Below are positions 2,972-46,515 of a stretch of DNA of 64,000 nt, one piece after another. This DNA is from Parcubacteria group bacterium. Lineage in GTDB: Bacteria > Patescibacteriota > Patescibacteriia > UBA9934 > GWF2-40-263. The DNA is taken from positions 2,490 through 66,489 of the forward strand of contig JABMNZ010000017.1 in the NCBI GenBank assembly GCA_013204395.1. The letters are read 5' to 3'. Below the pieces are notes generated by a model. The model made no database searches. It had not been told where the DNA came from and worked only from the letters and a program-made list of their open reading frames with translations. The position numbers were made by a program, and so were the translations under genes. The stretch's first letter is position 1; each line of letters begins with the position of its first letter.

Positions 2972-2973
2972 GT

Positions 2974-7710: not shown

Positions 7711-7734
7711 AAAGACGGCGAGGTTCATCCTCGC

Positions 7735-7921: not shown

Positions 7922-7936
7922 GTAATCTATGTCCTT

Positions 7937-8969: not shown

Positions 8970-8977
8970 TGGTAATA

Positions 8978-9005
8978 AAAACAGTCTTGGACTGTTTTTT
9001 GTTTT
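8978..9005. terminator. Bidirectional rho-independent terminator
   Basis: aaaacagtc-ttg-gactgtttt followed by T-runs. Confidence 0.5.
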
Positions 9006-9012
9006 AGTGGAG

Positions 9013-9042
9013 TTGCAAAGCTTTAGAGGGGTTTGGTATAAT
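9013..9042 (+). promoter_or_regulatory. Near-consensus sigma70 promoter (TTGCAA-N18-TATAAT) driving the candidate ncRNA
   Basis: -35 at 9013-9018, -10 TATAAT at 9037-9042. Confidence 0.45.
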
Positions 9043-9048
9043 CTAATT

Positions 9049-9289
9049 GCTCCACGGAACTAATTTGGGCAAACACTTGGCATTAGGCTTGGAACCACTA
9101 CTGCTTTGGCAGAGTGTGAGAGCCTCGCGGTTATCCCTTAGGGGACAAGTTATTCAGAACGTCATATCGGCATTGCTGAATTGAATGTATCTGAGGCGCG
9201 CTGTGCTACAGCACGGGGCCCGACTAGAACCAGCCAAATGTAGGGCTGTGGAGTGATAAAAATACCGAGCAATAGCTCAGTATTTTTTT
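9049..9289 (+). ncRNA. Candidate structured ncRNA of about 240 nt, class unresolved (SRP-RNA-like domain IV motif; 6S or other possible)
   Basis: No ORF of 60 aa or more in a 330-bp gap between convergent genes. It has its own promoter. The 5' end (AUUGCUCCAC) pairs with the 3' end (GUGGAG...GAGCAAU). The internal segment GGCCC-GACU-AGAACCAGCCAAAUG resembles the SRP RNA helix-8 AGCAGCCAAGG region. A T-run lies at 9281-9290. Confidence 0.35.
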
Positions 9290-9305
9290 ATTTGGTTTGT
9301 TGCAA

Positions 9306-9893
9306 TTATATCTTGTCCAAGACTCCTGCATCTAGCAGGGCTTGATGATGCTCAGGGAGATATCTAGCCATGTATTCGATTAGCTTCCCTCGAACACGCC
9401 TGGTATCAAGATCGATTGATTTCGCAAATGCGCTAATGCGATCGTTGGCTTCTTGCTGTTCTTCCATCGATTCAATAAGGAGCTCAATCTCTACAACTGC
9501 ATAACCAAAGTCACAGTTATCTAGATCTATTCTGAGCCCATCCCGAAGATAACTTCGACGAGTTTTTTCTATTTTTGCGAAAGGTTTGTACCCAGCGATC
9601 TCGATTTCTCTCGTTAAATCCATTCCAGGCAATCCAAGTTTGACCGCTATTGATAAATCATCCTCAAGTTCCACATGTGTACGTGAAGACACTTTAGAAT
9701 TCTTGTTCTGACCAATTTTTAGTTCCCACCGATCGTTACGAAGTCTGAGCCACAGACTTTCTAAACCGAGCGTGTAATCTTCTGTGTCATAGTACGTATC
9801 GATGTTTGTTTTTTCATAGTCGAACGTAGCTCCCTTGAGAAGTTTTTCTTCCTGCTCAGGATTTAACAGAAACTTTTGTTCAACTTCAATCAT
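9306..9893 (-). CDS. CYTH-domain protein (class IV adenylyl cyclase/triphosphatase fold)
   Basis: N-terminal EVEQKFLL matches the ExExK signature of CYTH domains; the length fits. Confidence 0.65.
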   Translation of the reverse strand: MIEVEQKFLLNPEQEEKLLKGATFDYEKTNIDTYYDTEDYTLGLESLWLRLRNDRWELKIGQNKNSKVSSRTHVELEDDLSIAVKLGLPGMDLTREIEIAGYKPFAKIEKTRRSYLRDGLRIDLDNCDFGYAVVEIELLIESMEEQQEANDRISAFAKSIDLDTRRVRGKLIEYMARYLPEHHQALLDAGVLDKI

Positions 9894-29177: not shown

Positions 29178-29828
29178 CTAGGCCTCACTGGGGATCCACT
29201 TTTTATGCTTTGACATGATTTCATCAAATAAATCTGACTGCAAAAACGTCCCAAGCCAAAGATGAACGTTTTTATACGGCGATGACCCTAGCCAGTCAGG
29301 TTCTACAGAAGCAAATTGTCGAACAAAGGGGAGTAGGGCCGCATCGACAAACCGCATATGATCGCCAGATAAAAACGTGCTATGAGAAAGAAGGTCATCA
29401 AGCTTCTTTATAAATACCTCACCGAGTTGTCTGTAATGTTCCTGGTTATTTTCAGGGTGACTGTTGTGATACTTATACTTGTCTAAGTGCATTTTGAATG
29501 TTGAGTCGTTTTCGTTGATCAAGTCCATGTTGGCCTCGTCCAACCAGGAGTCAGGATCATTTTTTGTCAGAGCCCACTTCATGATCTCGAGGCTTTCGTC
29601 GATAACGTATCCATCCGGAAGAACAAGCACAGGCACTGTTCCCTTGGGAGAGAATTCAATCATTGAAGATGGCTTATCCTTTAGCTCTACTTCTCGTAAC
29701 TCAACAGTCTGGCCACTTATTGCAAGAGCAAGCCTGGCACGCATGGCATAAGGGCATCTGCGAAATGAGTAGAGTATTGGAAGAGTGCCTTTCATGTGGT
29801 CGTAAATATAGATGGGGTCGTTATTCAA
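29178..29828 (-). CDS. Glutathione S-transferase-like (thioredoxin-fold N-terminal domain) protein
   Basis: N-terminal GST fold with YSFRRCPYAMRARLAL and conserved cis-Pro region TVPVLV; helical C-terminal domain. Confidence 0.55.
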   Translation of the reverse strand: MNNDPIYIYDHMKGTLPILYSFRRCPYAMRARLALAISGQTVELREVELKDKPSSMIEFSPKGTVPVLVLPDGYVIDESLEIMKWALTKNDPDSWLDEANMDLINENDSTFKMHLDKYKYHNSHPENNQEHYRQLGEVFIKKLDDLLSHSTFLSGDHMRFVDAALLPFVRQFASVEPDWLGSSPYKNVHLWLGTFLQSDLFDEIMSKHKKWIPSEA

Positions 29829-30408
29829 TCAAACAACCCAGAGCTCTCATTGCTTCGACAAGTTTGGCGGCGATTTCTTCTGGACGATCAAGTTTACCAA
29901 GAAGTGTTGTCTTTCCTTCCGTTGCCGCTACTTTGAAATCATCTGATAAGAAAAACTCTTGAGTTACGTCAAAAAGATCAGCGATGATTTTTACTCCTGC
30001 ATGGTTGCCACGTCTGATAGTCTCAAGCATGCTTATTTTTGCAAGATCTATGAGATCATCATCTTGCAGATCTTCTTTTGAGAGCTCGTATAAATCAAAG
30101 GCTTGTTGAACAGCATTGGCCGCACGCTTTTCTAGGCCACTAGCAATAGATCCTTTTGCCGCTTCTCTTGTTTCTGGCAAGGCAAGAAATTCTTTCCTTG
30201 TTTGTTCATCTAAAGCATCGAGTAAATCTACGACGTCGTGGACTTTTCCGTTTCTCACAGCAGCCGTGAGAAATTCAGCTTCGGTTCTCTTTAGCTCTGC
30301 ATTAAGTCTTCTGGCTTCGTTAAATTTTCCCTTGCCTAAGGCTTCTGTCATTGCCCGCACCTGCCCTTCTTTGACCTCGGGGGCTTCTGGACCTGAGTCA
30401 CTGTACAT
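29821..30408 (-). CDS. Hypothetical protein
   Basis: ORF only; helical, acidic. Confidence 0.35.
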   Translation of the reverse strand: MYSDSGPEAPEVKEGQVRAMTEALGKGKFNEARRLNAELKRTEAEFLTAAVRNGKVHDVVDLLDALDEQTRKEFLALPETREAAKGSIASGLEKRAANAVQQAFDLYELSKEDLQDDDLIDLAKISMLETIRRGNHAGVKIIADLFDVTQEFFLSDDFKVAATEGKTTLLGKLDRPEEIAAKLVEAMRALGCLIE

Positions 30409-30443
30409 ATCAATTGTTCTTTATTTCAATAATTAGTTCACTT

Positions 30444-30602
30444 TTATGGAGACACCCTATCAATCAATGGGGATTGCTGGAAGCCTGGGACTGGTGGTTT
30501 TGGTGGGAAGGAATCTAGTGTTCCTTTGTTACAGCCAGCACCAAGAAGGATCAGGCAGAATATAACTGTTAGTAGAACCGAGTTGTTCATTAGATATTTC
30601 AT
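30444..30602 (-). CDS. Possible small lipoprotein (52 aa), not in the ORF track
   Basis: MKYLMNNSVLLTVIFCLILLGAGC, a signal peptide plus lipobox. No clear Shine-Dalgarno. Confidence 0.3.
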   Translation of the reverse strand: MKYLMNNSVLLTVIFCLILLGAGCNKGTLDSFPPKPPVPGFQQSPLIDRVSP

Positions 30603-30655
30603 GTCAGAATGTTGTCATATATAAAAAGAGACTGCTGGAAACGGTCGCTTTTTTA

Positions 30656-31255
30656 ATGATAGTAGATCAAGAGATTGCCAGTAAGCATTTGATAGCCATG
30701 GAGCCGGTGCTGAGACAAATTGAAACGCTACAACATCTAGGAAATAAACTTTCAGGTCTCAGTAGTGTCATGACCATCGACCTCAAGAGCCTATTCCCAG
30801 AAATTGAACGGGTCGAAACAGCTAAGATAGCTATTGTCCCGCCACAGAATAGACTTGTCACATTGAATGATACAAAAGAACTGGTAAAAGAAACCCTCGA
30901 TAAAGTTAAACATTCAGCAGTTGAAGGAGTAATATCTATTTTTATAGATCCAGATAAAAGGGAGGTGTTTCGTTATCCACGGTCAGAGAACAGCTACTTC
31001 TTTAAATCAGATTCACGGATACTTCTTTTACTGTCTTTGTCCTATCAGTACACGGAGACTTATAAACTCTCCGATCGTGCAGGCTATTCTACAAATCGAT
31101 CAGTTACGACAACAATTCAAAAAATTCGAAAACAAATTTCAAAATCATTAGATGTTGATGACGACATTATCGAAGGAAGTGCGCATATAGGATACCGAAT
31201 TTCTCCAAAATTTAGGATACTACTTGTAACCGATTTTAAGGAATACGGTGCATAA
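30656..31255 (+). CDS. Putative winged-helix (OmpR/PhoB C-terminal-like) DNA-binding protein
   Basis: C-terminal TIQKIRKQISKSL...IIEGSAHIGYRIS resembles the Trans_reg_C wing (..vrGvGYrl). No receiver domain. Confidence 0.4.
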   Translation: MIVDQEIASKHLIAMEPVLRQIETLQHLGNKLSGLSSVMTIDLKSLFPEIERVETAKIAIVPPQNRLVTLNDTKELVKETLDKVKHSAVEGVISIFIDPDKREVFRYPRSENSYFFKSDSRILLLLSLSYQYTETYKLSDRAGYSTNRSVTTTIQKIRKQISKSLDVDDDIIEGSAHIGYRISPKFRILLVTDFKEYGA

Positions 31256-31286
31256 ACTTTTTTTTTGTTATCCACAGCCCGAGAAT

Positions 31287-31311
31287 ACCGCTAAGAACAG
31301 CGGTTTTTTTA
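31287..31311 (+). terminator. Rho-independent terminator
   Basis: accgct-aagaac-agcggt followed by ttttttt. Confidence 0.55.
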
Positions 31312-31323
31312 TTATCCATCTGC

Positions 31324-32667
31324 ATGATGATCTATATACGGTGCATCAGCCTTTTTGATGTAATTGAAATAGGTAATTCATTAAAAAAAGACATTATGCA
31401 ACAAGATATCAAGATCCAATACGTTCCGATCACAAGTCTTAAATCAGCCGAATATAACCCTCGCTCCTGGGACGATTCAGCTAAAGAAAAGCTCAAAGCG
31501 AGCATTAAGCAACACGGTTTTTGCGATCCTGTGATCGTGAATAGTTCACTGGAGCGGAAGAATATCATCGTTGGTGGTCACTTTAGTACTGAATGCGCGA
31601 AGGAGCTTGGTTTTACAGAAGTTCCTGTCGTTTACGTTGAGTTAACACTAGAGCAAGAGAAGGCTCTCAACTTAAGATTAAATCGTGTTTCTGGAAGTTG
31701 GGATTTTGAACTCTTGAAAGAATTCGATATTGATCTTCTTCTTGATGTCGGGTTTGACGACACAGATCTTTCCAATATTTGGGACGATATTCTGTCGATC
31801 GAAGACGATGACTTTGATGTTGAAGGAGCTGTAGATGAAATAAAAGAACCAACAACTAAACTTGGTGATCATTATCAGCTTGGAAATCACAGGCTTCACT
31901 GCGCGGACTCGACAGATTTGGAGTCTGTGAAACGACTTGTAGGTGATCAGAAAATTGACATGGTTTTTTGTGACCCTGTCTACAATATTGGATTCAGTTA
32001 TAAAGACGGACTGACGACGAAAGGAAAATATGGAGGTAAAGCAAATGACACGAAATCAGATGAGGATTATCGGAACTTCATCAAAGCTTCGATGGAGAAC
32101 GCTCTGTCTGTAGCAAAACCTGATGCTCATGTCTTCTATTGGTGCGATCAGAAATACATTGGGCTTATGCAGTCGCTGTATGCAGAACTTGGCGTTGCGA
32201 ATAAGCGTGTGTGTATGTGGATCAAGAATAATTTCAACATGACACCTCACATCGCTTTCAACAAAGCGTACGAGCCATGTGTGTATGGAACGATCGGGTC
32301 GCCTTATCTTAATCCTGACGTCACAAACATTCATGAAATCGTGAATAAGGAGGTTGCTTCTGGGAATCGGTGCCTTTCAGACATTATCGACTTATTCGAT
32401 ATTTGGCTCGCTAAACGAGATAACGGAAATGAGTACGAGCATCCGACGCAAAAGCCGTTAACGCTTTGTGAGAAGCCCTTGAGGCGTTGTACGAAGCCAG
32501 GGGACAACGTCCTAGACTCTTTCGGTGGTGGCGGTAGTGTGTTGTTGAGCTGTGAGCAGATGAAGCGGAAGGCATTTTTGATAGATATAGATCCGATTTT
32601 CTGTGATGTGATAATTCGCAGGTTCGAGGAGATGACCGGAATCAAGGCTATTAAAATTAACGACTAA
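31324..32667 (+). CDS. ParB-like nuclease N-terminal domain fused to N4/N6 DNA methyltransferase (phage/plasmid-type orphan MTase)
   Basis: ParB-N region (DPVIVNS...IIVGGH) followed by motif IV DPVY and motif I FGGGGS in a beta-class MTase. The true start may be the ATG at 31396. Confidence 0.7.
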   Translation: MMIYIRCISLFDVIEIGNSLKKDIMQQDIKIQYVPITSLKSAEYNPRSWDDSAKEKLKASIKQHGFCDPVIVNSSLERKNIIVGGHFSTECAKELGFTEVPVVYVELTLEQEKALNLRLNRVSGSWDFELLKEFDIDLLLDVGFDDTDLSNIWDDILSIEDDDFDVEGAVDEIKEPTTKLGDHYQLGNHRLHCADSTDLESVKRLVGDQKIDMVFCDPVYNIGFSYKDGLTTKGKYGGKANDTKSDEDYRNFIKASMENALSVAKPDAHVFYWCDQKYIGLMQSLYAELGVANKRVCMWIKNNFNMTPHIAFNKAYEPCVYGTIGSPYLNPDVTNIHEIVNKEVASGNRCLSDIIDLFDIWLAKRDNGNEYEHPTQKPLTLCEKPLRRCTKPGDNVLDSFGGGGSVLLSCEQMKRKAFLIDIDPIFCDVIIRRFEEMTGIKAIKIND

Positions 32668-32670
32668 ACT

Positions 32671-33423
32671 ATGGATATCAAAACCGGAGATATTATCAGG
32701 CTTGGAGATCACTATCTTTTCTGCGGAGATTCAACAAAACGAGAGAGTGTAGAAAAGCTACTGAAGGACAGAGAGATCGATTTAATCCTGACAGATCCTC
32801 CGTACGGAGTGGCCTACGTTGAAAGTAAGGAAGGTTTTACACAAACGATCGCAAAACCGAAAATCATTAAAGGTGACGAGATTCAAACGGAGGCGAATTA
32901 TCGGAGCTTCACTTGTGCGTGGCTCACGCAGGCTCAGCCTTTCATGGCAAACAAAAACTCTGTCTACATCTTCAACTCGGACAAGATGGTCTTTGCTCTG
33001 CGTGAAGGTTTCCTGCAGGCTGGATTCAGATTCACACAACTCCTTATTTGGGCAAAGACTCACGCGGTGGTGGGGAGGATGGATTACTTGCCTCAGCACG
33101 AACTAATTATGTACGGCTGGTATGGCACGCATAAGTTCCATAAGTCTAAAGATAAATCCGTACTCATATATCCAAAACCAAACAAATCGAAATGGCATCC
33201 TACAATGAAACCTATTGGTTTACTTCGGAGGATGATTCTGAATAGCTCAAAGGTGGGTGACACGGTTTACGATCCCTTTGGAGGGAGCGGATCAACCCTT
33301 TTGGCATGCGAGCATACGAACCGTAGGTGCGTCATGATAGAGATCGATTTAGAGTATTGCCAAACGATCGTGATGCTTTGGGAGATGTTTACTAAGCAGA
33401 AAGCAGAAAAGGTCTATGAATGA
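32671..33423 (+). CDS. N4/N6 DNA methyltransferase (beta class)
   Basis: Motif IV DPPYG, then motif I DPFGGSGST; C-terminal ..IEID.. region. Confidence 0.75.
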   Translation: MDIKTGDIIRLGDHYLFCGDSTKRESVEKLLKDREIDLILTDPPYGVAYVESKEGFTQTIAKPKIIKGDEIQTEANYRSFTCAWLTQAQPFMANKNSVYIFNSDKMVFALREGFLQAGFRFTQLLIWAKTHAVVGRMDYLPQHELIMYGWYGTHKFHKSKDKSVLIYPKPNKSKWHPTMKPIGLLRRMILNSSKVGDTVYDPFGGSGSTLLACEHTNRRCVMIEIDLEYCQTIVMLWEMFTKQKAEKVYE

Positions 33424-33865
33424 ACATATCCCATCACCGTATCCTGCGGTGGCAGAACGACAGGATAAGCAAAAAGAGCTTGTTATTGAACAGCTAAAGA
33501 AAACGCCGATCATTCAGATTGTGTGCGAGAAGGTTGGAATATCACGCGCGACATTCTACAGATGGAAACAAGACGACCTGGTATTCGCAGATGCACTTGA
33601 ACATGCAATCTTTATGGGCGTTGAGCTTGTAAACGACATGGCAGAGTCACAGTTATTGTCGGCGATTCGTGATCAGAATATGACAGCCATTATCTTCTGG
33701 CTGAAGCATCGACACCGATCATACGGGACACGCGTTTCGTTGGATGCCAATCTAAACGTAAACAGAAGCTTGAGTACAGAGGAGCAAGAGACAATCAAGA
33801 AGGCTTTAAGTCTCGCGAAATTAATTCCTGAAAGCATTGCGTATGACGAACAAGAAACTGAGTGA
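33416..33865 (+). CDS. Putative terminase small subunit (HTH protein)
   Basis: HTH (VGISRATFYRWKQ) immediately upstream of and overlapping the terminase large subunit gene. Confidence 0.45.
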   Translation: MNEHIPSPYPAVAERQDKQKELVIEQLKKTPIIQIVCEKVGISRATFYRWKQDDLVFADALEHAIFMGVELVNDMAESQLLSAIRDQNMTAIIFWLKHRHRSYGTRVSLDANLNVNRSLSTEEQETIKKALSLAKLIPESIAYDEQETE

Positions 33866-35330
33866 TCAGATACTGCAGGACAAAGGTATCCGTACAGGGC
33901 TGACAACGGGAAGTCATATGTGGTTCTTTCATACCTATATCAGCGATTATGTGCAGTATCCGACGGCGCCATTTCAGAGACAGTTCTTTGATATCACCGA
34001 AGACACCTCAACCAAGCTCGTCGTCTTAACAGCGTTTCGTGGATCGGCGAAGTCTACAATATTCACTATGTCGTATCCGATTTGGGCGATTCTTGGAAAA
34101 CAGCAGAAGAAATTCGTTTTGATTTTGTCGCAGACTCAGTCGCAGGTAAAAATGCATCTTGCAAACTTAAAGCGTGAGCTTGAGTCAAATAGATTGTTGC
34201 GCCAAGACCTGGGACCATTCGAAGAGCAAGATGAGGAATGGAGTTCTGGAACGATTGTACTTCCGAAGTATGGAGCACGCATCACCGCGCTCTCTATGGA
34301 GCAAGGAGTTCGAGGATTGCGCCACGGGTCGCATCGTCCCGATATTATCATCTGTGACGACATCGATGACATATCATCTGTAAAGACAAAAGATTCACGG
34401 GATAAAGTGTGTAACTGGTTTTTGGGCGATGTCGTCCCAGCAGGAGACACGGATACGCGCATTATTGTTGTTGGTAACTTGTTGCACGAGGATTCGCTGA
34501 TGATGAGGTTGAAAAATCAAATTGAATCAGATCAACTGGATGGATCGTTCTTTTCGTTTCCCATTGTAGATGAGATAGATAAGCCTATCTGGCCAGGAAA
34601 ATTTAGGAAGCCAGAAGATCTCTTGAATCTGAAGAGGAAAATCGGGAACGAGGTCGTATGGCAACGGGAGTATATGCTTCGCATAATATCCAATACAGAT
34701 CGCGTAGTGCATCCCGAATGGATTCAATTTTATGACGAGTTACCAAAGCTCGCTGGAAATGTTGAACTGCGAGGGATCTATAGCGGGGTGGATCTGGCTA
34801 TCTCTGAAAAGACATCAGCTGATTACACCGCGATAGTCACTGTTGCCGTTTACGTTGTCGACAAGGAAGTTAAAATCTACGTCTTCCCAAACCCAGTGAA
34901 TCAACGACTGACATTTCCGAAAACTGTAGAACGCATAAAGATGCTTTACGACAACATCCATGAGAGTAATAGTAGAAACAAGATCTATATTGAGGATGTT
35001 GGATATCAGAAAGCCCTCATACAGCAACTTGAAATGGAGCGCTTGCCCGTTGAAGGCGTCGGGGTTGGCGGTACAGACAAAAGATCCCGCATCGCGCTCA
35101 CAAGCCCACATATCGAGTCTGGAAAGGTTTTATTCCCCAAGAAGGGGTGTAAAGATCTGATCATGCAGTTAGTCGATTTTGGTGCGGAAAAAAATGACGA
35201 TTTGGCTGATGCATTTTCCATGGTAATTAATAAGGCTGTCACAATAAAATACTGCACATTCGGAATCTGGGACTTGAATCAGGATGTAGGACCCATGATT
35301 GTTGGAGACATTATGAATAGAAGGTTCTAG
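33837..35330 (+). CDS. Phage terminase large subunit
   Basis: Terminase Walker A (AFRGSAKST), Walker B (IIICDDIDD), C-terminal RNaseH-like nuclease (GVDLAISEKTSADYTAIV). Confidence 0.75.
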   Translation: MRMTNKKLSDQILQDKGIRTGLTTGSHMWFFHTYISDYVQYPTAPFQRQFFDITEDTSTKLVVLTAFRGSAKSTIFTMSYPIWAILGKQQKKFVLILSQTQSQVKMHLANLKRELESNRLLRQDLGPFEEQDEEWSSGTIVLPKYGARITALSMEQGVRGLRHGSHRPDIIICDDIDDISSVKTKDSRDKVCNWFLGDVVPAGDTDTRIIVVGNLLHEDSLMMRLKNQIESDQLDGSFFSFPIVDEIDKPIWPGKFRKPEDLLNLKRKIGNEVVWQREYMLRIISNTDRVVHPEWIQFYDELPKLAGNVELRGIYSGVDLAISEKTSADYTAIVTVAVYVVDKEVKIYVFPNPVNQRLTFPKTVERIKMLYDNIHESNSRNKIYIEDVGYQKALIQQLEMERLPVEGVGVGGTDKRSRIALTSPHIESGKVLFPKKGCKDLIMQLVDFGAEKNDDLADAFSMVINKAVTIKYCTFGIWDLNQDVGPMIVGDIMNRRF

Positions 35331-35383
35331 CAACCTACCTAAAATGTAGGGCCTAGACTTACCCCACCGTAGCGGTATGTTGT

Positions 35384-36679
35384 GTGCATATGGAAGGTCT
35401 CGAAACAACTGCACTACATTACGTCTTATACGCGCGAAAATCGTCCGAAGCAGAGGAGAGACAGGCTTTGTCGATAGAGTCGCAGGTTAAGGAGATTTCA
35501 GCCTTTGCAGAGCAACAGGGGCTCACAATCGTGGAGATAAAGAGAGAAAGCCATTCCGCAAAGGATACAGGGCAGAGGAAGGTGTTTAACTCCATGATCC
35601 AAGGTCTTAGAGACGGCAAGTACCAGGGAATCGTCACATGGGCACCAGACAGGTTGAGTCGCAACGCAGGCGATCTTGGAGCGCTGGTTGACCTTATGGA
35701 CAGCAAGAAGCTTCAACAGATCAGAACACCAAGCCAGATGTTCACCAACTCTCCGAGCGACAAATTCCTGCTCATGATCCTGTGCTCGCAGGCCAAGCTC
35801 GAGAATGATAATAAGAGTGTGAATGTGAAGCGCGGACTACGTGCCAAGTGCGAGTTGGGTGTGCGTCCAGGCGTTGCGCCGCTTGGGTATCTTAACAATC
35901 CAAATCAGACAAAGGGACAAAGGAAGATAAATCTAGATCCAGAACGCGCGCATGTCATAAAAGAAATGTTCGAGCTAGTTGCAGAGCATGGATACAGTGG
36001 GCGCGACTTGTTCGTGTGGATCAATAAGGAAACGGGAATGCGTACACGTGGTGGAAAGAAGGTGTCGCTAAGTTCGATCTACCGCATGCTAAACACGCCG
36101 TTTTACTACGGTGAGTTTGAGTACCCACGAGGTGGGGGAGTATGGTACAAGGGCGACCACGATCCGTTAATATCAAAAGAGTTATTCGAGAAAGTACAGA
36201 AGCATTTAGACATACCGACTCGCGAAAAGAAAAGGTCTCACACGTTCAACTACACAAGGCTCATACGTTGCGGGGACTGCGGGTCGTTTGTGTCTGCTGA
36301 TCAAAAAATTAAGACATTAAAGTCTGGTGAGCAAAAGCATTACATCTATTACAGATGCTCTCGTGGTCGCGATCGTTTCTGCGCTCAGCCTCCGATCACA
36401 GAGGATGATCTTGTCGGCGAGATGTACAAAGTCTTCGATCAAATTAAGCTGGATGAAAAGAAACTCACACAAAATCTCAAGCGTGAGTTTCTTAAATACC
36501 GAAACTTCATGAGGGATGTATTCGGAGCAGAAGTTGCGCGTCAAAGCGATGACAAGCTGAATGTGAATGCGTACGCGCAGTACTTGCTCAAGACAGGATC
36601 GCGCGAGGAAAAGCGGGAGTTGCTTAAAAGCCTAGAAACTAAGCTCGTTCTTCAGAGTAGATGTCTAAATATCCCTTGA
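35384..36679 (+). CDS. Large serine recombinase (phage integrase-type)
   Basis: Resolvase catalytic domain with YARKSS catalytic Ser, a recombinase domain, a C-terminal zinc ribbon (CGDCGS...YYRCS) and coiled-coil. Confidence 0.8.
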   Translation: MHMEGLETTALHYVLYARKSSEAEERQALSIESQVKEISAFAEQQGLTIVEIKRESHSAKDTGQRKVFNSMIQGLRDGKYQGIVTWAPDRLSRNAGDLGALVDLMDSKKLQQIRTPSQMFTNSPSDKFLLMILCSQAKLENDNKSVNVKRGLRAKCELGVRPGVAPLGYLNNPNQTKGQRKINLDPERAHVIKEMFELVAEHGYSGRDLFVWINKETGMRTRGGKKVSLSSIYRMLNTPFYYGEFEYPRGGGVWYKGDHDPLISKELFEKVQKHLDIPTREKKRSHTFNYTRLIRCGDCGSFVSADQKIKTLKSGEQKHYIYYRCSRGRDRFCAQPPITEDDLVGEMYKVFDQIKLDEKKLTQNLKREFLKYRNFMRDVFGAEVARQSDDKLNVNAYAQYLLKTGSREEKRELLKSLETKLVLQSRCLNIP

Positions 36680-36778
36680 AAACAGCTTGTTTTAGAGGTA
36701 TGGTGGTTGACAGAAGTCCATTTTTCTGCTACATTTAGCCGTTGTTCTTTACTATCTATCAAGTTCCAATATCTCTTG

Positions 36779-36822
36779 AGAGTGGCGTTTTGCAGTTAGT
36801 GCAGACTTCAAAACGCCACTCT
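36779..36822. repeat. Perfect 14-bp inverted repeat with 16-nt spacer between recombinase and DGR target
   Basis: agagtggcgttttg ... caaaacgccactct. Confidence 0.4.
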
Positions 36823-36902
36823 TAATGAACAAAGGCAGGTTTCCGTGAGCGCATAGGGTGCGAACGGTGGCTAGTCGGAGTTGGCACAAGGAGGCAGGTC
36901 TT

Positions 36903-37730
36903 ATGGCCGGTCCCGATCCTGACCAGAACGCTGAGTTCTGGCGTCGTTTTCGCCGCTTCGGCGGCACCGATCCTACCATGAAGGAGCTCCTCGGAGACGA
37001 TGAGCTCATGGAGTGGTGGATCACGTCGCTCAACGAGCGACGCAACTCCAACCCGTTCGAGATCTCTGTGAAGGAGTCCCTCGATCGTCTGCGAGCCGCC
37101 TACGACGACACCTTCTGTCCGCTGGGCGCGAAGGAGCCGACGTCTTCGGAGCTCACTCACCTCGAGCGTATGGCGCCCAACTGGCCCAAGGGCAAAGACG
37201 CCTTCCGCAGCTTCCAGGTGCGGCCGGCGGCCTTCGGCGAGGGTCGCGATGGGGTCATCAATACCTTCGAGGCGACCTGCGCGAGCGTCAAGCTCATCCA
37301 CGACCCCAAGTTCTGGCGATGGGAGTTGCTCCTCTCGGGAGCGCATCCGTACCAGGGCGAGGACGTGGAACGCCTGCGACTACTGGGCGGCAACGAGCGC
37401 CACACTCCGGGGGTCTGCTGGGTCACCTTCAATCTGTCGGAGGGTCGGCAGCGCGCCGATGTCACGTCCGTGCGAAGCGGTCGGTCACTCTCGGACGCCG
37501 GGATCTTCGCTGCGCGGATGTTCCCGGATCGCGCCAAGGCGATCGACTACGAGAAGAAGCCGGCTTGGTTCTGTGCTGGCTACGAGTTGAACGTCCCCGA
37601 GCGCGCTGATGAGCCGTGGCAGTACGTGCCCTGCGTGCACCGCAACGTGCGCTACGGCACGGTGCCCCTGCGCGCCCACTGGCGCGGCGATGCCAACTCG
37701 CGCTACTCGGTGCCCTCCGTCGGGGAGTAG
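36903..37730 (+). CDS. DGR target protein carrying the C-terminal variable repeat (VR); G+C-rich islet gene 4
   Basis: AAGGAGG Shine-Dalgarno 8 nt before the ATG at 36903; the ORF is open from 36858. Its last ~130 nt match the downstream template repeat except at template adenines. Confidence 0.7.
   Translation: MAGPDPDQNAEFWRRFRRFGGTDPTMKELLGDDELMEWWITSLNERRNSNPFEISVKESLDRLRAAYDDTFCPLGAKEPTSSELTHLERMAPNWPKGKDAFRSFQVRPAAFGEGRDGVINTFEATCASVKLIHDPKFWRWELLLSGAHPYQGEDVERLRLLGGNERHTPGVCWVTFNLSEGRQRADVTSVRSGRSLSDAGIFAARMFPDRAKAIDYEKKPAWFCAGYELNVPERADEPWQYVPCVHRNVRYGTVPLRAHWRGDANSRYSVPSVGE
37592..37724 (+). repeat. DGR variable repeat (VR)
   Basis: About 133 nt, matching 38161-38293 with roughly 18 mismatches, all at positions where the other copy has A. 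Confidence 0.8.
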
Positions 37731-37862
37731 GCACTGGGAACTTGAACGCTTTGCGCTCGGAGGTTCTTGGGACTTGTCTCTTGACCCTTCGTTCGCGAAG
37801 CGAACTCGCCACGAAAAAGCGCACGCGCTCTACGTGGCACTGCGGCATCTGGAAAACGCTCA

Positions 37863-37897
37863 ATAGAAGAGTGTCACTCCCAGGTGCCGCTCTTCTA
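37863..37897 (+). terminator. Hairpin downstream of the DGR target gene
   Basis: atagaagag ... ctcttctat (9-bp stem, 17-nt loop) followed by tttcaa. Confidence 0.3.
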
Positions 37898-38160
37898 TTT
37901 CAACAATCTTTGATAAACTAGTAGTGGAAAGTAGGTCAGTGAGCCCGTGTTTAAGAATACTGGTCACCGAAATCTCTTGTTTCCCAATATACCGGCAGAG
38001 TTTCATTGTTCACGGATAATGAAAGTGTACGGTGGGACTAACAAGCACTCCGCATTTCATCTTGGAATCAACCTTCAGTGAAGGAGTGAGTTCCGCATAA
38101 AATTCAGAAGTCGGATGCGTCTGACTTTGGTGTCATGGAAGGGTGAAGTGTAAAGTGAGG

Positions 38161-38293
38161 CGTCCCCGAGAACGATAATGAGCCGTGGCAGAACGTGCCC
38201 TGCGTGAACCGCAACGTGAACAACGGCACGGTGAACCTGAACGCCAACTGGCGCAGCAATGCCAACTCGAACTACTCGGTGCCCTCCGTCGGG
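38161..38293 (+). repeat. DGR template repeat (TR)
   Basis: Non-coding copy of the VR that is enriched in AAC triplets; every VR/TR difference maps to a TR adenine. Confidence 0.8.
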
Positions 38294-38339
38294 AGTTCTT
38301 GTGTAGCAAAGAAGCGCTCTATCGCGCTTCTTTGTCTTC

Positions 38340-38714
38340 CTAGTTCTTTTTGAGATCCTCCTGAGTGCGTTTGATCCAGCCACCTAGCATCTTTCCTGTT
38401 TCAATAAGTCTGGACTCAATGTGGAGATATTGATTGTTCCCAATGCACTTGCAGTCCTTGGATAGTCGTACAAGGAGTTTAGTAAGATCAAGTTTTGCGC
38501 TTGCTTGTTGCAGAGTCGTTAGCTTCTCCTGGTCTTTGGTACTTGCGCTGGCGGTAAGGACCAATTCAAGCACCGTCAGAGCATGAAGCGAGACGCGTTC
38601 ACCCAAAGTGTATCGTTGTACTTTTGGAAACTTTACTATGATCTCATTCCACTCAGCATAAATATCGTATAGCGTATGAGCAATTGGGATATCACCAGGA
38701 CCGCCTCTGAGCAA
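38340..38714 (-). CDS. avd: Avd-like DGR accessory protein (four-helix-bundle, 23S-rRNA-IVS protein family)
   Basis: Family-typical segments (VKFPKVQRYTLGERVSLHAL ... GKMLGGWIKR). TTG start. Lies between TR and RT on the opposite strand. Confidence 0.7.
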   Translation of the reverse strand: MLRGGPGDIPIAHTLYDIYAEWNEIIVKFPKVQRYTLGERVSLHALTVLELVLTASASTKDQEKLTTLQQASAKLDLTKLLVRLSKDCKCIGNNQYLHIESRLIETGKMLGGWIKRTQEDLKKN

Positions 38715-38733
38715 CTTTCGATCTTTCCTAATA

Positions 38734-39735
38734 ATGCGGGGGGGGGGGAGAAATAGGCGTCCTCATAGGTTGGATAGTTATGATTTGTTTTCACGGATCA
38801 CTTCAATAGAAAACCTTTTTATCGCATGGGAACGTTTTCGTAAAGGTAAGCGAAGTCGCCAAGACGTAATGTTATTTGAACGCCATCTTGAAGACAACTT
38901 GTTTGCCCTACAAGCCGAACTTGCCTCAGGTGCTTACCAGCATAGTCCCTACGAGCGATTTACCATCCACGACCCAAAACAACGTACTATTCACAAGGCC
39001 GATGTAAAAGATCGCGTTGTCCATCAAGCCATTGTGAATGTTATCGAGCCCTTATTTGAGAAGCGATTCATTTATGACAGTTATTCATGCCGTGTAGGAA
39101 AAGGTACGCATGCGGCGGTGAAGAGGCTGAGGACGTTCTTGCTCAGAGATAGTATCAACAATATAAAAACAGTCTACGCTCTCAAATGTGACATTCAAAA
39201 GTTTTTCGCGAGTGTGAATCATCGAAAGCTTCTTCATCTTCTTGAAAGACACATTCACGATCCCGAAACCATGAAGCTGCTTACTGGTGTCATTGAAAGC
39301 TTTTCTGTTTCGCCTGGCGTGGGAATACCTCTGGGCAATCTCACAAGTCAATTATTCGCAAACGTGTACCTTCATGAGTTGGATTGGTTCGCGAAGCAAG
39401 AACTAAAAGTGCACCACTACGTTCGGTACTGTGACGATTTTGTGTTGCTCGCAGAATCCCAGGAAGAATGTGATGTATTCACTGAACGAATTGAGATGTT
39501 TCTTAAAAGTCATCTCCACATGCATCTGCATCCAAACAAAGTACACGTGAGGACCTGGAGGCAGGGTGTAGATTTTCTCGGATATATATTGTTACCACAC
39601 ACGACCATTTTACGACCGTCTACAAAGAAAAGGATGATCCGCAAAATCAACAAGGACAATGCAAGTTCGTACCTTGGTTTGTGTCAGCACGCAAACGCCT
39701 TTGATCTTGAACGAATGTTAAAGAACCTAGTTTGA
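38734..39735 (+). CDS. DGR reverse transcriptase
   Basis: RT motifs including the DGR-characteristic IPLGNLTSQLFANVYLHELD and catalytic YCDDFVLL. The ATG at 38734 is followed by a G11 tract; TTG at 38770 or 38785 are alternative starts. Confidence 0.85.
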   Translation: MRGGGRNRRPHRLDSYDLFSRITSIENLFIAWERFRKGKRSRQDVMLFERHLEDNLFALQAELASGAYQHSPYERFTIHDPKQRTIHKADVKDRVVHQAIVNVIEPLFEKRFIYDSYSCRVGKGTHAAVKRLRTFLLRDSINNIKTVYALKCDIQKFFASVNHRKLLHLLERHIHDPETMKLLTGVIESFSVSPGVGIPLGNLTSQLFANVYLHELDWFAKQELKVHHYVRYCDDFVLLAESQEECDVFTERIEMFLKSHLHMHLHPNKVHVRTWRQGVDFLGYILLPHTTILRPSTKKRMIRKINKDNASSYLGLCQHANAFDLERMLKNLV

Positions 39736-40137
39736 TACCGATTCTCGCATTCCTATATTTCCGTAGTCTTCCCCCCGGGACTTCTCTGTTGCACATGATT
39801 CTCTACCTTGACAGCCTGCTCTTTTGCGACAGGATTCGGTTTGGATTCCTTGACCCTAGGTTTCTTTTTTGATGAGTCTATGGGGCTACTTGGTTTTTGG
39901 GAAGCTATCGATCGTGGAAGCTGGATAGAAATTCTGCTTAGATTTTTTAGGGTAATCAGAAATTATTTCAGAACAAACTCGTTGACTGATTGCTACTGAT
40001 AAAATATCTGCAATTTGAATATGAGTTCGCATACTTGTATATGCATGATTGGATCATTATTATTCTTTTGAACTGTTTGGAGAGTTTATCAAACTAAAAA
40101 TAATTGACTTATATTAATGGTTTTGGGATTCCAATGA

Positions 40138-41115
40138 TCAACCCTTGATAATACCTTTTTTTGCGAATCGTTCTAAAAGTTGTTTGGCTAGAAAAATCGC
40201 ATAATCAATATCTTGATCTTCTGTCATTTCAAAATAACTAATATCTTGATTCCAATGCTCCATACTTTTCTCAACATATTGAACTTGTTTTTCAGGATCG
40301 TTTACGTCTTTAGGTTTAGTCCTCGTCATGTCCATGCGTACTTTCGATTTATAGATATGAATTGCAACAACATTTACATTTCCAATTTTGTAACCAATAT
40401 ATTGTTTTGTAGGTGCTTCTTCAAAACGAGAATCTAAAGATAGTAACTTATCTCGCAAAGAATCAAATAAATCGTGAGAGTTATTCCAATCAGATTTGAA
40501 ATGATCAGCTACGGTGTAGGTTTTCACCTCACGACTAACCTTACTCACAGTTTCATCTTTTGTAACTGTCTTTATTGATTCTGCTGTATGGATGGCTTTG
40601 ATCGGATTGTATGAAAATAAGCTGTTCTCATATTTTCGAACCTCCCACAATTCGATCGGTAAATCCTTGAAGTTTATTGCCTCGCGCTGATGTGTCGTGA
40701 AGCTGTGGGCAAGGAATAGAACACGTGATTGTGACCAATCTATATCGTCGCGTTTTAGACTGCCTTGCATCTGCTCGTTATACTCTAGGATAAAATCTGC
40801 CTTGTTATTGAGCATAAGTGCGAGGTATGCAAAACCTTGGTCTACTACACTAAAACTTTTGTCACGCTTGTACTCAATAATCACAAAAGCACTCGTCTCT
40901 GTATCGAATGCTAGCGTATCTATCCGGAGATTATTTAGTTGAAATTCTGTCGCAACGAACTTTAGGTTAAATACGGTTTCAATATTATTCTCCGTCAATT
41001 CTTGCAGATCTTTTTCAAGTCCAATCTTCAGCTCTCGGACAGTTTCTAAATTATTCTTTGATTGTTTAAATACAGGCATAGTATTCACATTATTGCAGAA
41101 AATACACTTACCCAC
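40138..41115 (-). CDS. Putative PD-(D/E)XK-fold nuclease-like protein
   Basis: N-terminal RIDTLAFDTETSAFVIIEYKRD matches a D...E.K nuclease core; C-terminal domain unknown. Confidence 0.4.
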   Translation of the reverse strand: MGKCIFCNNVNTMPVFKQSKNNLETVRELKIGLEKDLQELTENNIETVFNLKFVATEFQLNNLRIDTLAFDTETSAFVIIEYKRDKSFSVVDQGFAYLALMLNNKADFILEYNEQMQGSLKRDDIDWSQSRVLFLAHSFTTHQREAINFKDLPIELWEVRKYENSLFSYNPIKAIHTAESIKTVTKDETVSKVSREVKTYTVADHFKSDWNNSHDLFDSLRDKLLSLDSRFEEAPTKQYIGYKIGNVNVVAIHIYKSKVRMDMTRTKPKDVNDPEKQVQYVEKSMEHWNQDISYFEMTEDQDIDYAIFLAKQLLERFAKKGIIKG

Positions 41116-41172
41116 AATGTGAAGTAACTAAAAACTCCTTATCAAAAGGAGTTTTTAGTCTGCGTGTAAAGT

Positions 41173-41748
41173 CTAAAATCCAAGACTTATCTTAGCTTCT
41201 TTGCTTCCAAAAAGTGATAGATCGCCAACGATCAAAGAAAATCCCTCAGCATCAGCTGGAACTTCGTACACATCTGCAAAGGTGAACGGTAAGTTTGGAT
41301 TGAGGTTTTCTAAAATAAAAAGCTGTTCAGCACCTAGGTTCTTAAAACTGCTTGATGAATTTGTAAATTCACGACCCTTATTATCGACAAGTTTTAGATT
41401 CGACGTCGACTTCATGTCACTTCCTAGATTTTCAACAGTTGCGTTTATGACAATAAATTTTCCTTGAGTCGTCTCTGATCCACCAAAGGCTCCAGAAAGT
41501 GATGTTTTAGAATAGGCGTCTGTGACAACCCATTTTACTTCTCCTACCGTTACTTCATCGTTCAATGAATAACTCACCGTTGCTTCGCTTTTGTTTGAGT
41601 CTCCTGATGAGCCTGTATTAGAAGTTGGACTGCTATCACCACCAATTGCACCGATGAAAATAAAGAAGATTATCACCGCACCGATACCAGTGAGAATCTT
41701 GTGTTTTGCGAACCAGTTTTTACTGGAGTCTCTTGAATCTTTGCTCAT
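41173..41748 (-). CDS. DUF4352-like membrane-anchored extracytoplasmic protein
   Basis: N-terminal TM, Ser/Gly linker, then a beta-sandwich domain resembling DUF4352 (FIVINATVENLGSD...). Confidence 0.45.
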   Translation of the reverse strand: MSKDSRDSSKNWFAKHKILTGIGAVIIFFIFIGAIGGDSSPTSNTGSSGDSNKSEATVSYSLNDEVTVGEVKWVVTDAYSKTSLSGAFGGSETTQGKFIVINATVENLGSDMKSTSNLKLVDNKGREFTNSSSSFKNLGAEQLFILENLNPNLPFTFADVYEVPADAEGFSLIVGDLSLFGSKEAKISLGF

Positions 41749-41854
41749 ATTTTTGCGTAGGGATTAATTGATATTGCTCAGGAACACAAAAGGCCTCCCT
41801 GAACTGACGGCAACAATCTTTCGAAAGCTACCCCGAGCCCTTGCGGAACTCGAC

Positions 41855-41902
41855 CCTACGCAAATAGATGTCAGCCAAGAAGGCCGTCAATATTTGCGTA
41901 GG
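41855..41902. repeat. 12-bp inverted repeat with 24-nt spacer
   Basis: cctacgcaaata ... tatttgcgtagg. Confidence 0.3.
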
Positions 41903-42256
41903 TGTTGCCATGCTCACAGGACGTGAGTTTAGGCAATTTGTATTGATATAGTAGCTTACAATCTTATTACCGTAAAGATATTCTGTGTACTGAAAGTTAA
42001 AAACAGGGAATGGGATTCGAACCGAGATTCTTCTCTCACCTTAGGGACGAAACAGGATTTTGGACAAAATGACCGACGGTGGGACTCGAACTTTTTCCGA
42101 ACCGAAAGCGACGAACAAGACGACGACGCACTCGAGTCTCGAACTTGAGCCGTGTGCGTTTTAAGTAACAAAGACGGGTAAAACAAAAGCACTCGACCGA
42201 AGTCGAGGCTCTGTGCAATCTGACGGACATGGGTCGCGTCAGAACTTTTTTGCTTT

Positions 42257-42331
42257 TGGCTCGGGGGGAGGGATTCGAACCCTCGACCCATTGGTTAACA
42301 GCCAATTGCTCTGCCGCTGAGCTACCCCCGA
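42257..42331 (-). tRNA. tRNA-Asn (anticodon GTT)
   Basis: Minus-strand cloverleaf with acceptor UCGGGGG/CCCCCGA, D-arm GCUCAGCGGCAGAGC, anticodon loop CUGUUAA, T-arm GAGGG-UUCGAAU-CCCUC, discriminator G and encoded CCA. Confidence 0.85.
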
Positions 42332-43656: not shown

Positions 43657-43709
43657 GACTCCCGAGGGGGGAGTCAGTGGAACACCGCTTCGTCGCGGTG
43701 TTTTCTATC
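43657..43709. terminator. Two back-to-back hairpin terminators serving convergent genes
   Basis: gactccc-gaggg-gggagtc (minus-strand T-run) and acaccgc-ttcgtc-gcggtgt followed by tttct (plus strand). Confidence 0.5.
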
Positions 43710-44874
43710 TGATCTCACGGAGGTTGCCGCCCCAGTGATGGGTCAGGCAGATCCAGGCGAGATCCTCGATCCAGCTAATGATCTGCAGTCGACCATTGTG
43801 TTGCATCCGACCGAACCCACCGTTTACCGGAAGCGGGATGGTGTCGGTGACGATGAGCTTGGAGATCGGACACCCAGCAGCGGTGAATCGCTCCTCAGCC
43901 TCTCCACAGAGAACGGCATGTGTTGCCGCACCCCATACATCTGCCGCTTCGTTGCCAGCAAGTGCCTTCAGCTCGTCCGTTCCACGAAGTACACGGGCGA
44001 ACTTCATCATTGAGCCAGCGGTGGCAATCTCGTCGTCGAACATGACGGCGATTCTTCCTCGAACCAGTCGAGGGTCGCCAACAATGCCGACGATCTTGGT
44101 CTCTGTTGCACTCAGACGTCGTTTGAGTGCCGTGACGTCAGGGAACGTGAGCCCCATCTCAAGCTCGATTGCACCACGTGCTGTATCAAAGCGCTTGCGT
44201 GCACTGTCGTCTGGGAAGACGAGACACAATCGTTCCGGATCCGGCACCAAAGAGATGACGTGCTTGAGCACGCGCCGAGTGAGGTACACAGGAGTGACCT
44301 GCCCAGGTCTTCCGACCATGGAGATCTGCTCGCTGTGCGGATCGACGCAGATCCACCGGTGCAGTCCAACGGCTCCACATGCTGCTTCTACCAGCGCCAT
44401 CAGCATGGGCGGCATGGTCAGCTCGGTGTCACCCTCGTCCTTGTCAGAGCGACACAGTGGGAAATAGCCGGTGATGAGCGTGATGCGAGCGGCGTGACGA
44501 CCTCCGACATACGAGAGCGTCCAGAAAAGGTCCATGAGCATCTGGTCCGTTCCGGGACCTGTGGTGATGACCATGACGTCGTGCTCGCGGACATGACGAC
44601 CACCGAGCCTTACGAACGTCTCTTTGCTGGGACGACGACTGAAGTCCGGGGTAGCGATGTCTACGGGCGTCAGTCTCTCGCCGGGTCGACGTCCGCGCTC
44701 TTCAATGAGCCTTGCGACGCTTTCTACCACGGGCTGAAAACTCGGAGTTCCAGGTACCAGGGAAAGTCCACCAACCCTGTTGAAGGGGGGGGCGCTTCCA
44801 TCTCTTGTACGCGCGGAGCCAAACGGACTCATCGCTCGACAGGCCCAGGATTCCTGTTGCCCGCTTGATTGCAT
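43705..44874 (-). CDS. Ribose-phosphate pyrophosphokinase (PRPP synthetase)-like protein; G+C-rich islet gene 5
   Basis: Prs-like N-terminal region (LSLVPGTPSF ... RLGGRHVREHDVMVITT), VDPHSEQI and the PRPP-binding loop MFDDEIATAGS. Strong GC3 bias. A C8/G8 tract sits in the N-terminal region, so the start is uncertain. Confidence 0.6.
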   Translation of the reverse strand: MQSSGQQESWACRAMSPFGSARTRDGSAPPFNRVGGLSLVPGTPSFQPVVESVARLIEERGRRPGERLTPVDIATPDFSRRPSKETFVRLGGRHVREHDVMVITTGPGTDQMLMDLFWTLSYVGGRHAARITLITGYFPLCRSDKDEGDTELTMPPMLMALVEAACGAVGLHRWICVDPHSEQISMVGRPGQVTPVYLTRRVLKHVISLVPDPERLCLVFPDDSARKRFDTARGAIELEMGLTFPDVTALKRRLSATETKIVGIVGDPRLVRGRIAVMFDDEIATAGSMMKFARVLRGTDELKALAGNEAADVWGAATHAVLCGEAEERFTAAGCPISKLIVTDTIPLPVNGGFGRMQHNGRLQIISWIEDLAWICLTHHWGGNLREIR

Positions 44875-46187: not shown

Positions 46188-46515
46188 AGAGTTCTATGTT
46201 TAAAATAAAACGACATCTCGCAGGAGATGTTCATAAAGAATTATCGTTCCCGCTAAGGCCACGTAAAAACTCTTTCGAGTCACGTGGCAGGGCTGGATGG
46301 CGCACCCTTCGACAAGCTCATGGCCTGTCGGGGTTGCGGGTGGGTCATAGAGCCAGAACTCTCACCACACTCTTGATAGTTAAATTGTGAATGAAGAATA
46401 ACAGAAGTATTTTTGATTTACAATGGCATATCTGTGGATGAGTATTCGTTGCACCCTGCTCATCTCCTTTATTTGATACAATGATCCTATACATTCATTC
46501 AAACAAGAAAAAAAT

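Follow-up and report, generated by a model that had tools for sequence, protein, structure and literature searches.

A run of phage-type genes that ends at a tRNA-Asn gene in a Parcubacteria group bacterium (contig JABMNZ010000017.1) raises the question of what kind of mobile element would carry a complete terminase, an integrase and a diversity-generating retroelement (DGR) and have no genes for a virion. The window analysed here is the whole 64-kb stretch of that contig; coordinates are positions within it, and L-numbers (L001, L063 and so on) denote the related loci or contigs with which it was compared. From the sequence of 30656–42331, the original prediction had offered three options, namely a phage satellite, a cryptic prophage remnant, or a compact mobile island that had captured a DGR. 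The island is a copy of a widespread family of integrative elements, 8–17 kb in length, which we name TerSL elements. The satellite and the compact DGR-capturing island are the options that fit best, while prophage decay is contradicted by 46 related loci; the idea of a remnant is perhaps partly true for the left end of this particular copy.

The limits of the island were defined by blastn comparison with L063, a contig from a close relative. Homology to L063 covers 29214–30617 (84.7% DNA identity), ends sharply at 30617 and picks up again at 42256 to run to 43568 (87%). The window-specific segment between these conserved host flanks spans 30618–42255 (11.64 kb), nearly exactly the interval originally proposed. 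The left edge lies 38 bp ahead of the start codon of the first island gene. On the right, the segment ends at the CCA, or 3', end of tRNA-Asn, which is also precisely where homology of the window to a more distant relative, L008 from Uhrbacteria, restarts. Outside the island the window holds chromosomal housekeeping genes (PBP2, GreA, a DEAD helicase, MsrA, ABC-F proteins, RsmF, TruB, a glutathione S-transferase (GST), PRPP synthetase, MetK, VKOR/DsbD and a Na/H exchanger), and the flanking DUF2914 gene, used as a query, identified metagenome-assembled genomes (MAGs) of Candidatus Uhrbacteria (Patescibacteria, or candidate phyla radiation, CPR) as the nearest genomes. Comparison with relatives thus revealed sharp insertion boundaries against L063 and a different island in L008, and not the conserved core synteny that would be expected of resident chromosomal genes.

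Searches with hidden Markov models (HMMs) bore out the predicted order and identity of the ParB–methyltransferase fusion, second methyltransferase, terminase, recombinase, DGR and DUF4352 genes and of tRNA-Asn, and all genes of this copy are intact. The backbone lies on the plus strand. It comprises a ParB_N::N6/N4 DNA methyltransferase (MTase) fusion (31324–32667; PF02195 and PF01555; PHROG 498, E 6e-103), a second N6/N4 DNA MTase (32671–33423; PF01555, E 4.5e-32), a TerS-like helix-turn-helix protein (33416–33865; PHROG 309 at E 3e-10, PHROGs 4102 and 4044; Pfam HTH_Tnp_1_2), the large terminase subunit TerL (33837–35330; PHROG 38, E 2e-85; Terminase_6C/6N; NCBIfam TerL) and a large serine recombinase, or integrase (35384–36679; Resolvase, Recombinase and Zn_ribbon_recom; PHROG 95), for which the nearest solved structures are the SPbeta SprA, A118 and TP901-1 integrases. 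The Walker A, Walker B and nuclease aspartate residues of TerL are invariant in an alignment of 43 sequences, and the window enzyme is predicted to be catalytically intact. The two MTases had been taken for anti-restriction cargo; they are instead conserved core genes directly before TerS, the MTase of the ParB fusion having cluster partners upstream of TerS in 34 related loci and the second MTase being an optional core gene present in a subset of relatives. TerS was found in 36 related loci, always immediately before TerL, and a homologue of the recombinase in 17 of the 20 relatives with at least 3 kb of sequence after TerL. Between the recombinase gene and the DGR target, 97 nt past the stop codon of the former, lies a 50-bp imperfect palindrome (I3; 36776–36825) with 21-nt arms that are 90% complementary. 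It is no obvious terminator, because it has no T-run, and could be an operator or a recombination site.

TerL-seeded scans of IMG/VR, JGI metagenomes, ENA, NCBI and Logan yielded 46 independent related loci with TerL identities of 32–88%, and wherever the source names the organism the hosts are Patescibacteria. Mapping and clustering of open reading frames (ORFs) gave a recurrent order of a small C5 or C6 protein, ParB-MTase, optional second MTase, TerS, TerL and large serine recombinase. Variable cargo occupies three positions: left of the backbone, between TerL and the recombinase (optionally 1–7 kb, mainly on the minus strand), and, again optionally, between the recombinase and a tRNA gene. 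An opposite-strand repressor with LexA_DNA_bind and Peptidase_S24 domains occurs in eight clustered loci (assigned by Pfam on one representative), with weaker matches in two more. The TerL proteins of the closest relatives are 88% and 79% identical to that of the window and stand in the same gene order; L048, with the latter TerL, also has the closest recombinase (78%) and TerS (97%) found. The order is shared, too, by the loci that hold the nearest homologues of the window's C6 protein. In L048 an IS200-type Y1 transposase gene (6987–7433) lies between the C6-like gene and ParB-MTase. More broadly, a database search with TerL yields 3,870 homologues at E ≤ 1e-10. Identity is 52% or higher throughout the top 120, in which the named matches are from Parcubacteria or Patescibacteria MAGs, some on contigs longer than 500 kb. 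A second, divergent large serine recombinase gene is located 5–7 kb upstream of the TerSL backbone in L021 (1162–2907) and L041 (991–2505), which suggests tandem or nested elements. In the searchable literature we found no description of the TerSL family or of any satellite in Patescibacteria.

As had been predicted, the island encodes no virion: none of its ORFs matches a structural (capsid, portal or tail) or lysis family in PHROGs or Pfam. Structural genes were likewise absent from 40 ORFs sampled in related loci (Pfam) and from the precomputed Pfam labels of the contigs that were looked up. In relatives with sequence at this point, either the recombinase or minus-strand cargo comes straight after TerL, the exceptions being a plus-strand DGR target in L003, L024 and L036 and plus-strand PLD-SNF2 and Eco57I-like genes in L052. 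Phage-like same-strand arrays after TerL are seen solely in L061 and L062, where TerL identity is 28–29%. The capsid-less state appears to be a design of the family and not the outcome of random prophage decay, because the same order recurs in 46 loci with invariant TerL motifs and independent decay could not yield it.

Defence-related genes make up most of the cargo that could be identified in the sampled loci. Restriction systems include type I restriction-modification (RM), in some cases with DUF6119, type III systems, and MmeI/Eco57I-like enzymes paired with PLD-SNF2 helicases. Other cargo comprises GmrSD, DUF2779, a combination of TIR, caspase and 8xMP, T5orf172/GIY-YIG nucleases, a KAP NTPase, AAA_13, a cytosine-C5 MTase and an RHS toxin. 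The representative in the window is a candidate anti-phage gene of the PDC-S18/DUF5655 type (40138–41115, minus strand), which matches PADLOC PDLC04945 over its full length (E 2.3e-104). This gene had been described as a PD-(D/E)XK-like nuclease; its existence was confirmed, and its N-terminus shows a weak NucS-like match (E 4e-4).

The DGR of the window is complete, with reverse transcriptase (RT), Avd, adenine-specific template and variable repeats (TR and VR) and target gene all present. The target (36858–37730, plus strand) carries the VR at its C-terminal end (37592–37724), finishing 6 nt ahead of the stop codon. The TR (38161–38293, plus strand) is 86% identical to it, and all 18 mismatches of the 133-nt pair fall at TR adenines (18/18). 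The accessory protein Avd is encoded on the minus strand (38340–38714; NCBIfam NF033474, E 3e-21; Pfam bAvd on the identical gene in L042) and the RT on the plus strand (38734–39735; RVT_1; PHROG 1423, E 3e-110). A search for a second VR across the window found none. The target protein has no signal peptide and no membrane or hydrophobic segment, and its gene has a GC content of 65% versus 45% for the island. Neither a family match (Pfam, PHROGs) nor a PDB match was obtained for it, and its similarity to the targets of L003 is insignificant. The suggestion that it is a host- or receptor-binding protein delivered by the element is unlikely to hold, because the protein lacks a signal peptide or transmembrane (TM) segment and the element lacks a virion.

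DGR genes are present in at least six TerSL elements. The same layout of target with VR, TR, minus-strand Avd and RT follows TerL directly in L003 and L036; L024 has target with VR, TR and Avd before its contig ends, and L002 and L054 carry RT homologues. The RTs of L002, L003, L036 and L054 are 43–50% identical to that of the window, similar to the corresponding TerL identity (48–54%), and an RT-seeded scan of IMG/VR returned only more distant DGRs (37–44%) in ordinary phage-like contexts. The DGRs of Patescibacteria form a distinct clade (clade 2, Roux et al. 2021) that has been classed as cellular-encoded (PMC8144416). Those described there share with the present ones the RT, Avd, adenine-specific TR/VR changes and a C-terminal VR in the target; in contrast to the cellular assignment, the cassettes of the window, L003 and L036 in their entirety, and that of L024 as far as the contig covers it, reside inside a terminase-bearing mobile element.

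A further recurrent feature of the family is LOOT RNA (Rfam RF03000). In the window it lies on the minus strand (41809–41935; 53.2 bits versus a gathering threshold of 46.4), 60 nt upstream of the start codon of a gene (41173–41748, minus strand; PF11611; PHROG 806) for a DUF4352 protein that is anchored in the membrane by an N-terminal TM segment and has a homologue after TerL in L016. Rfam detects LOOT in 12 related loci at 62–94 bits (L012, L026, L028, L030, L032, L039, L051, L052, L054, L058, L068 and L075), and a copy in L031, cut by the contig end, was found solely by a covariance model built here (R1; 39 bits). All 14 verified copies, that of the window included, are inside TerSL elements, and 13 of the 14 are on the strand opposite to TerL, the end-truncated L031 match being on the TerL strand. 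A protein-independent scan of IMG/VR with an RNA pattern gave three matches, one of them a true LOOT (L068), within a TerSL element with a TerL identity of 32%; the pattern matches in L067 and L069 were false by the covariance model. In L075, a LOOT was predicted in the gap before the recombinase and then found there, with a spacing of 60 nt.

The position of LOOT relative to the gene that follows it is similarly regular. For 11 of 12 measured loci, the distance from the LOOT 3' end to the first ORF with an ATG start is 52–69 nt, and these ORFs are mutually unrelated (DUF4352, T5orf172, zinc-ribbon, bPH, SNase and others). The intervening spacer starts with one half of a GC-rich hairpin followed by CTTTTTG, resembling a terminator hairpin with its U-tract. 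Because of the spacing of about 60 nt to unrelated ORFs and the terminator-like spacer, this arrangement suggests a cis-acting leader or attenuator rather than the trans-acting small RNA type given in Rfam; the DUF4352 gene would be the one served in the window. No published discussion of the genomic context of LOOT was found in the searchable literature. By analogy with relatives, the DGR, PDC-S18 and DUF4352 genes of the window appear to be the cargo of one element.

The island abuts the host gene for tRNA-Asn(GTT) (42257–42331, minus strand; ARAGORN and Rfam, 72 bits), the 3' end of which faces it. A minus-strand tRNA gene with its 3' end facing the element is also found to the right of the recombinase in L003, L020, L021, L022, L025, L039, L044, L057 and L075; it is tRNA-Asn in L020 and L021 as in the window, and Glu, Gln, Trp or Ser in five others. 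L039 has 22 nt of the tRNA-Ser 3' end duplicated 16.6 kb to the left of the tRNA, and in L022 a direct repeat of about 19 nt that spans the tRNA-Gln 3' end recurs at a distance of 16.3 kb; these tRNA-derived repeats enclose cargo on both sides of the backbone. The repeat in L003 measures 13 nt. Relatives delimited by such repeats have lengths of 15.3–16.6 kb, compared with 11.6 kb in the window.

The tRNA-Asn locus itself appears to be an integration hot spot, because L063 and L008 carry different DNA at the same place. An empty site was not seen: L063 keeps both flanks but holds an unrelated 8.5 kb between them. That segment (L063 1317–9791) contains 12 unrelated genes (two with SET domains, Impact_N, VF530 and hypotheticals) with no recombinase among them; they are perhaps ancestral host genes since lost by deletion from the lineage of the window. 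In L008 a third, different island of 8.5 kb (1390–9879) occupies the same GST/tRNA-Asn locus and includes genes for a 987-aa protein and a 520-aa serine recombinase; the latter is unrelated to that of the window (29% identity), and its 3' end overlaps the 3' end of the identical tRNA-Asn. Next to the same tRNA, L008 and L063 have different islands, and L020 and L021 have related elements. Within the island, the tRNA-like fragments that had been noticed near the right end were verified. A relic resembling the tRNA-Asn 3' end (42005–42023, plus strand) matches at 15 of 19 positions, including the exact 12-mer GGGATTCGAACC, and is the only match to this 3' end within the 64 kb; a second fragment at about 42078–42095 is weaker. 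The relic, 230 bp from the tRNA, is a probable old att duplication and suggests earlier integration events. The 321 nt between LOOT and the tRNA gave no significant signal of a structured RNA (z-score -0.9), and a search for conservation of the island's non-coding stretches in relatives found none. Assemblies from two different samples (L001 and L042) break at the start of the DGR VR (37602 and 37606), and a further contig, L043, ends within tRNA-Asn close to the anticodon loop (42302). Diverse VRs and strain variation at the hot spot could account for these breaks, which are consistent with such heterogeneity and no proof of it.

The left end of the window copy is less regular. Its first gene (30656–31255, plus strand) encodes a small backbone protein of the family referred to above as C6, which clusters with ORFs directly 5' of ParB-MTase in L003, L014, L016, L018 and L022 and aligns with ORFs at the same position in L044 and L048. 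It had been called a winged helix-turn-helix regulator, a designation for which no support was obtained: there was no match in Pfam, PHROGs, PADLOC or NCBIfam, a PDB profile search gave nothing credible, hhalign against the OmpR winged helix was negative (probability 0.06), and an AlphaFold model from a three-sequence alignment failed (pLDDT 34). It is possible that the protein is a regulator. The closest homologues (P0124 and P0125 in L075 and L077; 62% and 55% identity, 250 aa) have an N-terminus extended by 51 residues and lie downstream of defence cargo. In the window the C6 reading frame stays open into the junction at 30618, and the copy has neither a repressor nor left-hand cargo. The direct repeats that had been proposed as att cores at the two ends did not materialize, as a repeat finder, local alignment and exact-word matching revealed no common word of at least 10 nt. 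This copy may have lost its left end and become fixed in place. A single deletion that removed the left end together with neighbouring host genes is as plausible as a genuine attL at 30617/30618, because the alternative 8.5 kb in L063 is without mobility genes. If such a deletion happened, the window copy is immobilised. The gene to the left of the junction (29821–30408, 195 aa) has a single homologue outside its own genome's sequence cluster, which led to the close-relative contigs L063–L066. It was considered as the repressor or left end of the element and rejected, as it shows no similarity to the S24 repressor profile; it is a host gene, since its only homologue adjoins GST in a relative without the element.

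Taken as a family, TerSL elements could be satellite-like integrative islands whose own terminase packages element DNA into the capsids of a helper phage, a reading to which we give about an even chance. The serine recombinase would insert the element at the 3' ends of tRNA genes and excise it again. Expression would be triggered by an SOS-type repressor, in those members that have one, or by infection by the helper phage. The element's TerS would then recognise element DNA, and its TerL would package that DNA into helper-phage procapsids. The MTases would pre-methylate it against restriction in the next host. The cargo would repay the host for carriage, in the form of defence systems and of an intracellular binding protein diversified by the DGR.

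In common with known satellites, the window island has an integrase, its own terS and TerL, no capsid, portal or tail genes, and a length within the range of about 7–20 kb. Phage-inducible chromosomal islands (PICIs), among them the Staphylococcus aureus pathogenicity islands (SaPIs), resemble it in size (about 10–17 kb), site-specific integration, the lack of virion genes, an own terS that redirects packaging, and defence or accessory cargo. Their regulatory module is repressor-controlled, and an S24 repressor is present in some TerSL members. However, PICIs use tyrosine integrases, a module of primase and replication origin, and the TerL of the helper, whereas TerSL elements have a large serine recombinase, no recognisable replication genes, a full TerS and TerL pair after ParB-MTase, and CPR hosts. 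Capsid-forming PICIs (cf-PICIs) are satellites that likewise encode both TerS and TerL, but they also encode capsid, portal, protease and head–tail connectors and borrow tails only; neither the window island nor the sampled ORFs of its relatives yielded any such gene. Tycheposons and other tRNA-targeting islands are similar in that cargo elements pile up at tRNA genes, forming hot spots with different islands in each strain. Tycheposons have tyrosine or serine recombinases and replication genes, and are not known to have a terminase module. A large serine recombinase is also found in two groups of phage satellites, the PICI-like elements (PLEs) of Vibrio cholerae and the marine virion-encapsidated integrative mobile elements (VEIMEs, module 3). 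Marine VEIMEs are described as often carrying terS and restriction-modification cargo, and in the accessible part of the source TerL is not among the shared genes and is attributed to helper phages (PMC9618062). For PLEs, own replication functions are described (PMC7145576). Beyond the recombinase superfamily, TerSL elements show no sequence relationship to PLEs or VEIMEs, and the hosts differ. The TerSL layout is closest to that of PICIs and other satellites, from which it departs in having no replication module, and its combination of serine integrase, full terminase, lack of a capsid, ParB-MTase and CPR hosts has not been described together.

Several observations weigh against the packaging of TerSL DNA in helper capsids. 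No primase, helicase or Rep family was found by Pfam or PHROGs in the backbone of any locus scanned, and known satellites nearly always carry a replication module. The satellites that do encode TerL, the cf-PICIs, also encode portal and capsid, unlike TerSL elements. No helper phage was identified, and the nearest TerL among deposited phages is at most 28% identical. Signs of excision, circular forms or encapsidation were not seen, and none of the fetched loci was a circular or terminally redundant contig. The left edge of the window copy shows no direct repeat or attL-like tRNA fragment, and the junction there may mark the end of a deletion and not an att site. Finally, the backbone protein encoded at 30656–31255 is without an assigned function. 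A more far-reaching proposal, which we put forward tentatively and regard as possible at best, is that TerSL elements are a previously unrecognised class of CPR satellite that hijacks helper procapsids to move defence systems and DGRs. LOOT would then act in cis as the leader through which the first cargo gene is switched on, the protein diversified by the DGR would be an intracellular sensor of proteins from helper or invading phages, and a substantial share of the "cellular" CPR DGRs would be satellite cargo.

Two other explanations merit weighing, both of which we consider improbable. It is conceivable that TerS and TerL make up an anti-phage interference device, which would cut or mis-package phage DNA or titrate procapsids, and that the island is a recombinase-mobilised defence island that spreads by other means. 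Packaging interference by satellites is an established defence mechanism; the cargo consists overwhelmingly of defence systems, and neither a replication module nor a helper was found. Against this, a conserved pair of TerS and TerL with invariant ATPase and nuclease residues and with MTases just before it corresponds to the normal phage packaging layout, and interference and self-packaging are not mutually exclusive. It is similarly doubtful that the window holds two adjacent islands, a 6.3-kb core with TerS and TerL that would extend to about 36.7 kb and a separate DGR and defence islet (36.8–42.25 kb) at the tRNA-Asn hot spot. Such a division would accord with the usual location of serine integrases at the end of an element, with the 50-bp palindrome after the recombinase, with the divergent GC content of the DGR target, with the tRNA-like relics near 42.0 kb that suggest several integration events, and with a 10-nt word, TTGTTCTTTA, that is present at 30414 and 36742. 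However, this 10-mer is expected about 0.24 times by chance, and its left copy is in host DNA common to L063. Moreover, the tRNA-derived repeats of L022 and L039 enclose cargo to the right of the recombinase, and in relatives DGR genes and genes led by LOOT are located within the backbone, after TerL and before the recombinase.

Only a slim chance is given to an in situ platform for packaging that resembles lateral transduction or a gene transfer agent and in which headful packaging would start from the integrated element and take in downstream cargo and adjacent chromosome, with capsids from a phage or a separate locus and with no need for excision or replication. The lack of replication genes and the placement of much of the cargo downstream of terS-terL, in the direction of packaging, would be in keeping with it, and lateral transduction is described as mobilising defence genes for phages and PICIs (PMC12829572). 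The conserved integrase and the tRNA-derived flanking repeats, however, point to a discrete element that excises, and cargo is located upstream of the backbone too. That the island is an ordinary cryptic prophage which lost its structural genes by deletion is very improbable: all genes are of phage type, the window copy may be truncated on the left and IMG/VR lists related contigs as viral, but a capsid-less order with recombinase or cargo right after TerL is kept in 46 loci (32–88% TerL identity) with catalytic motifs intact.

Some features of the surrounding DNA were recorded in the course of these comparisons. A S-adenosylmethionine (SAM) riboswitch is located upstream of metK in L008 (14466–14598, 45.9 bits), and the region upstream of the orthologous metK in the window (46188–46400) gave no Rfam match at threshold. 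Genes with a GC content of 59–65% in a genome of about 45% GC occur at 4389–7728, 14053–15570, 36858–37730 and 43705–44874; this set consists of a 424-aa ORF without assignment, the 5824–7728 region, an M17 aminopeptidase, the DGR target and a PRPP-synthetase-like gene. The 5824–7728 region (61% GC) contains two overlapping ORFs of near full length, one of 634 aa on the minus strand and one of 623 aa on the plus strand, neither with a Pfam match.

The genomes of CPR bacteria are tiny and hold few CRISPR systems, and knowledge of their phages and of the exchange of genes between them is scant. If TerSL elements are satellites of the kind proposed, thousands of terminase-bearing, capsid-less islands would constitute a major route by which these bacteria acquire immunity, in the form of RM, TIR/caspase and candidate defence systems, together with hypervariable proteins. 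The range of satellites would be widened to a terminase-only layout with a serine integrase and no replication genes. The classification of CPR DGRs would shift from "cellular" toward the cargo of mobile elements, and the orphan LOOT motif would be given a genomic setting, together with a function, open to testing, as a leader situated about 60 nt ahead of variable cargo genes. TerSL elements are easily recognised, so that the question of their helper can be put to the test in existing virome and long-read data.

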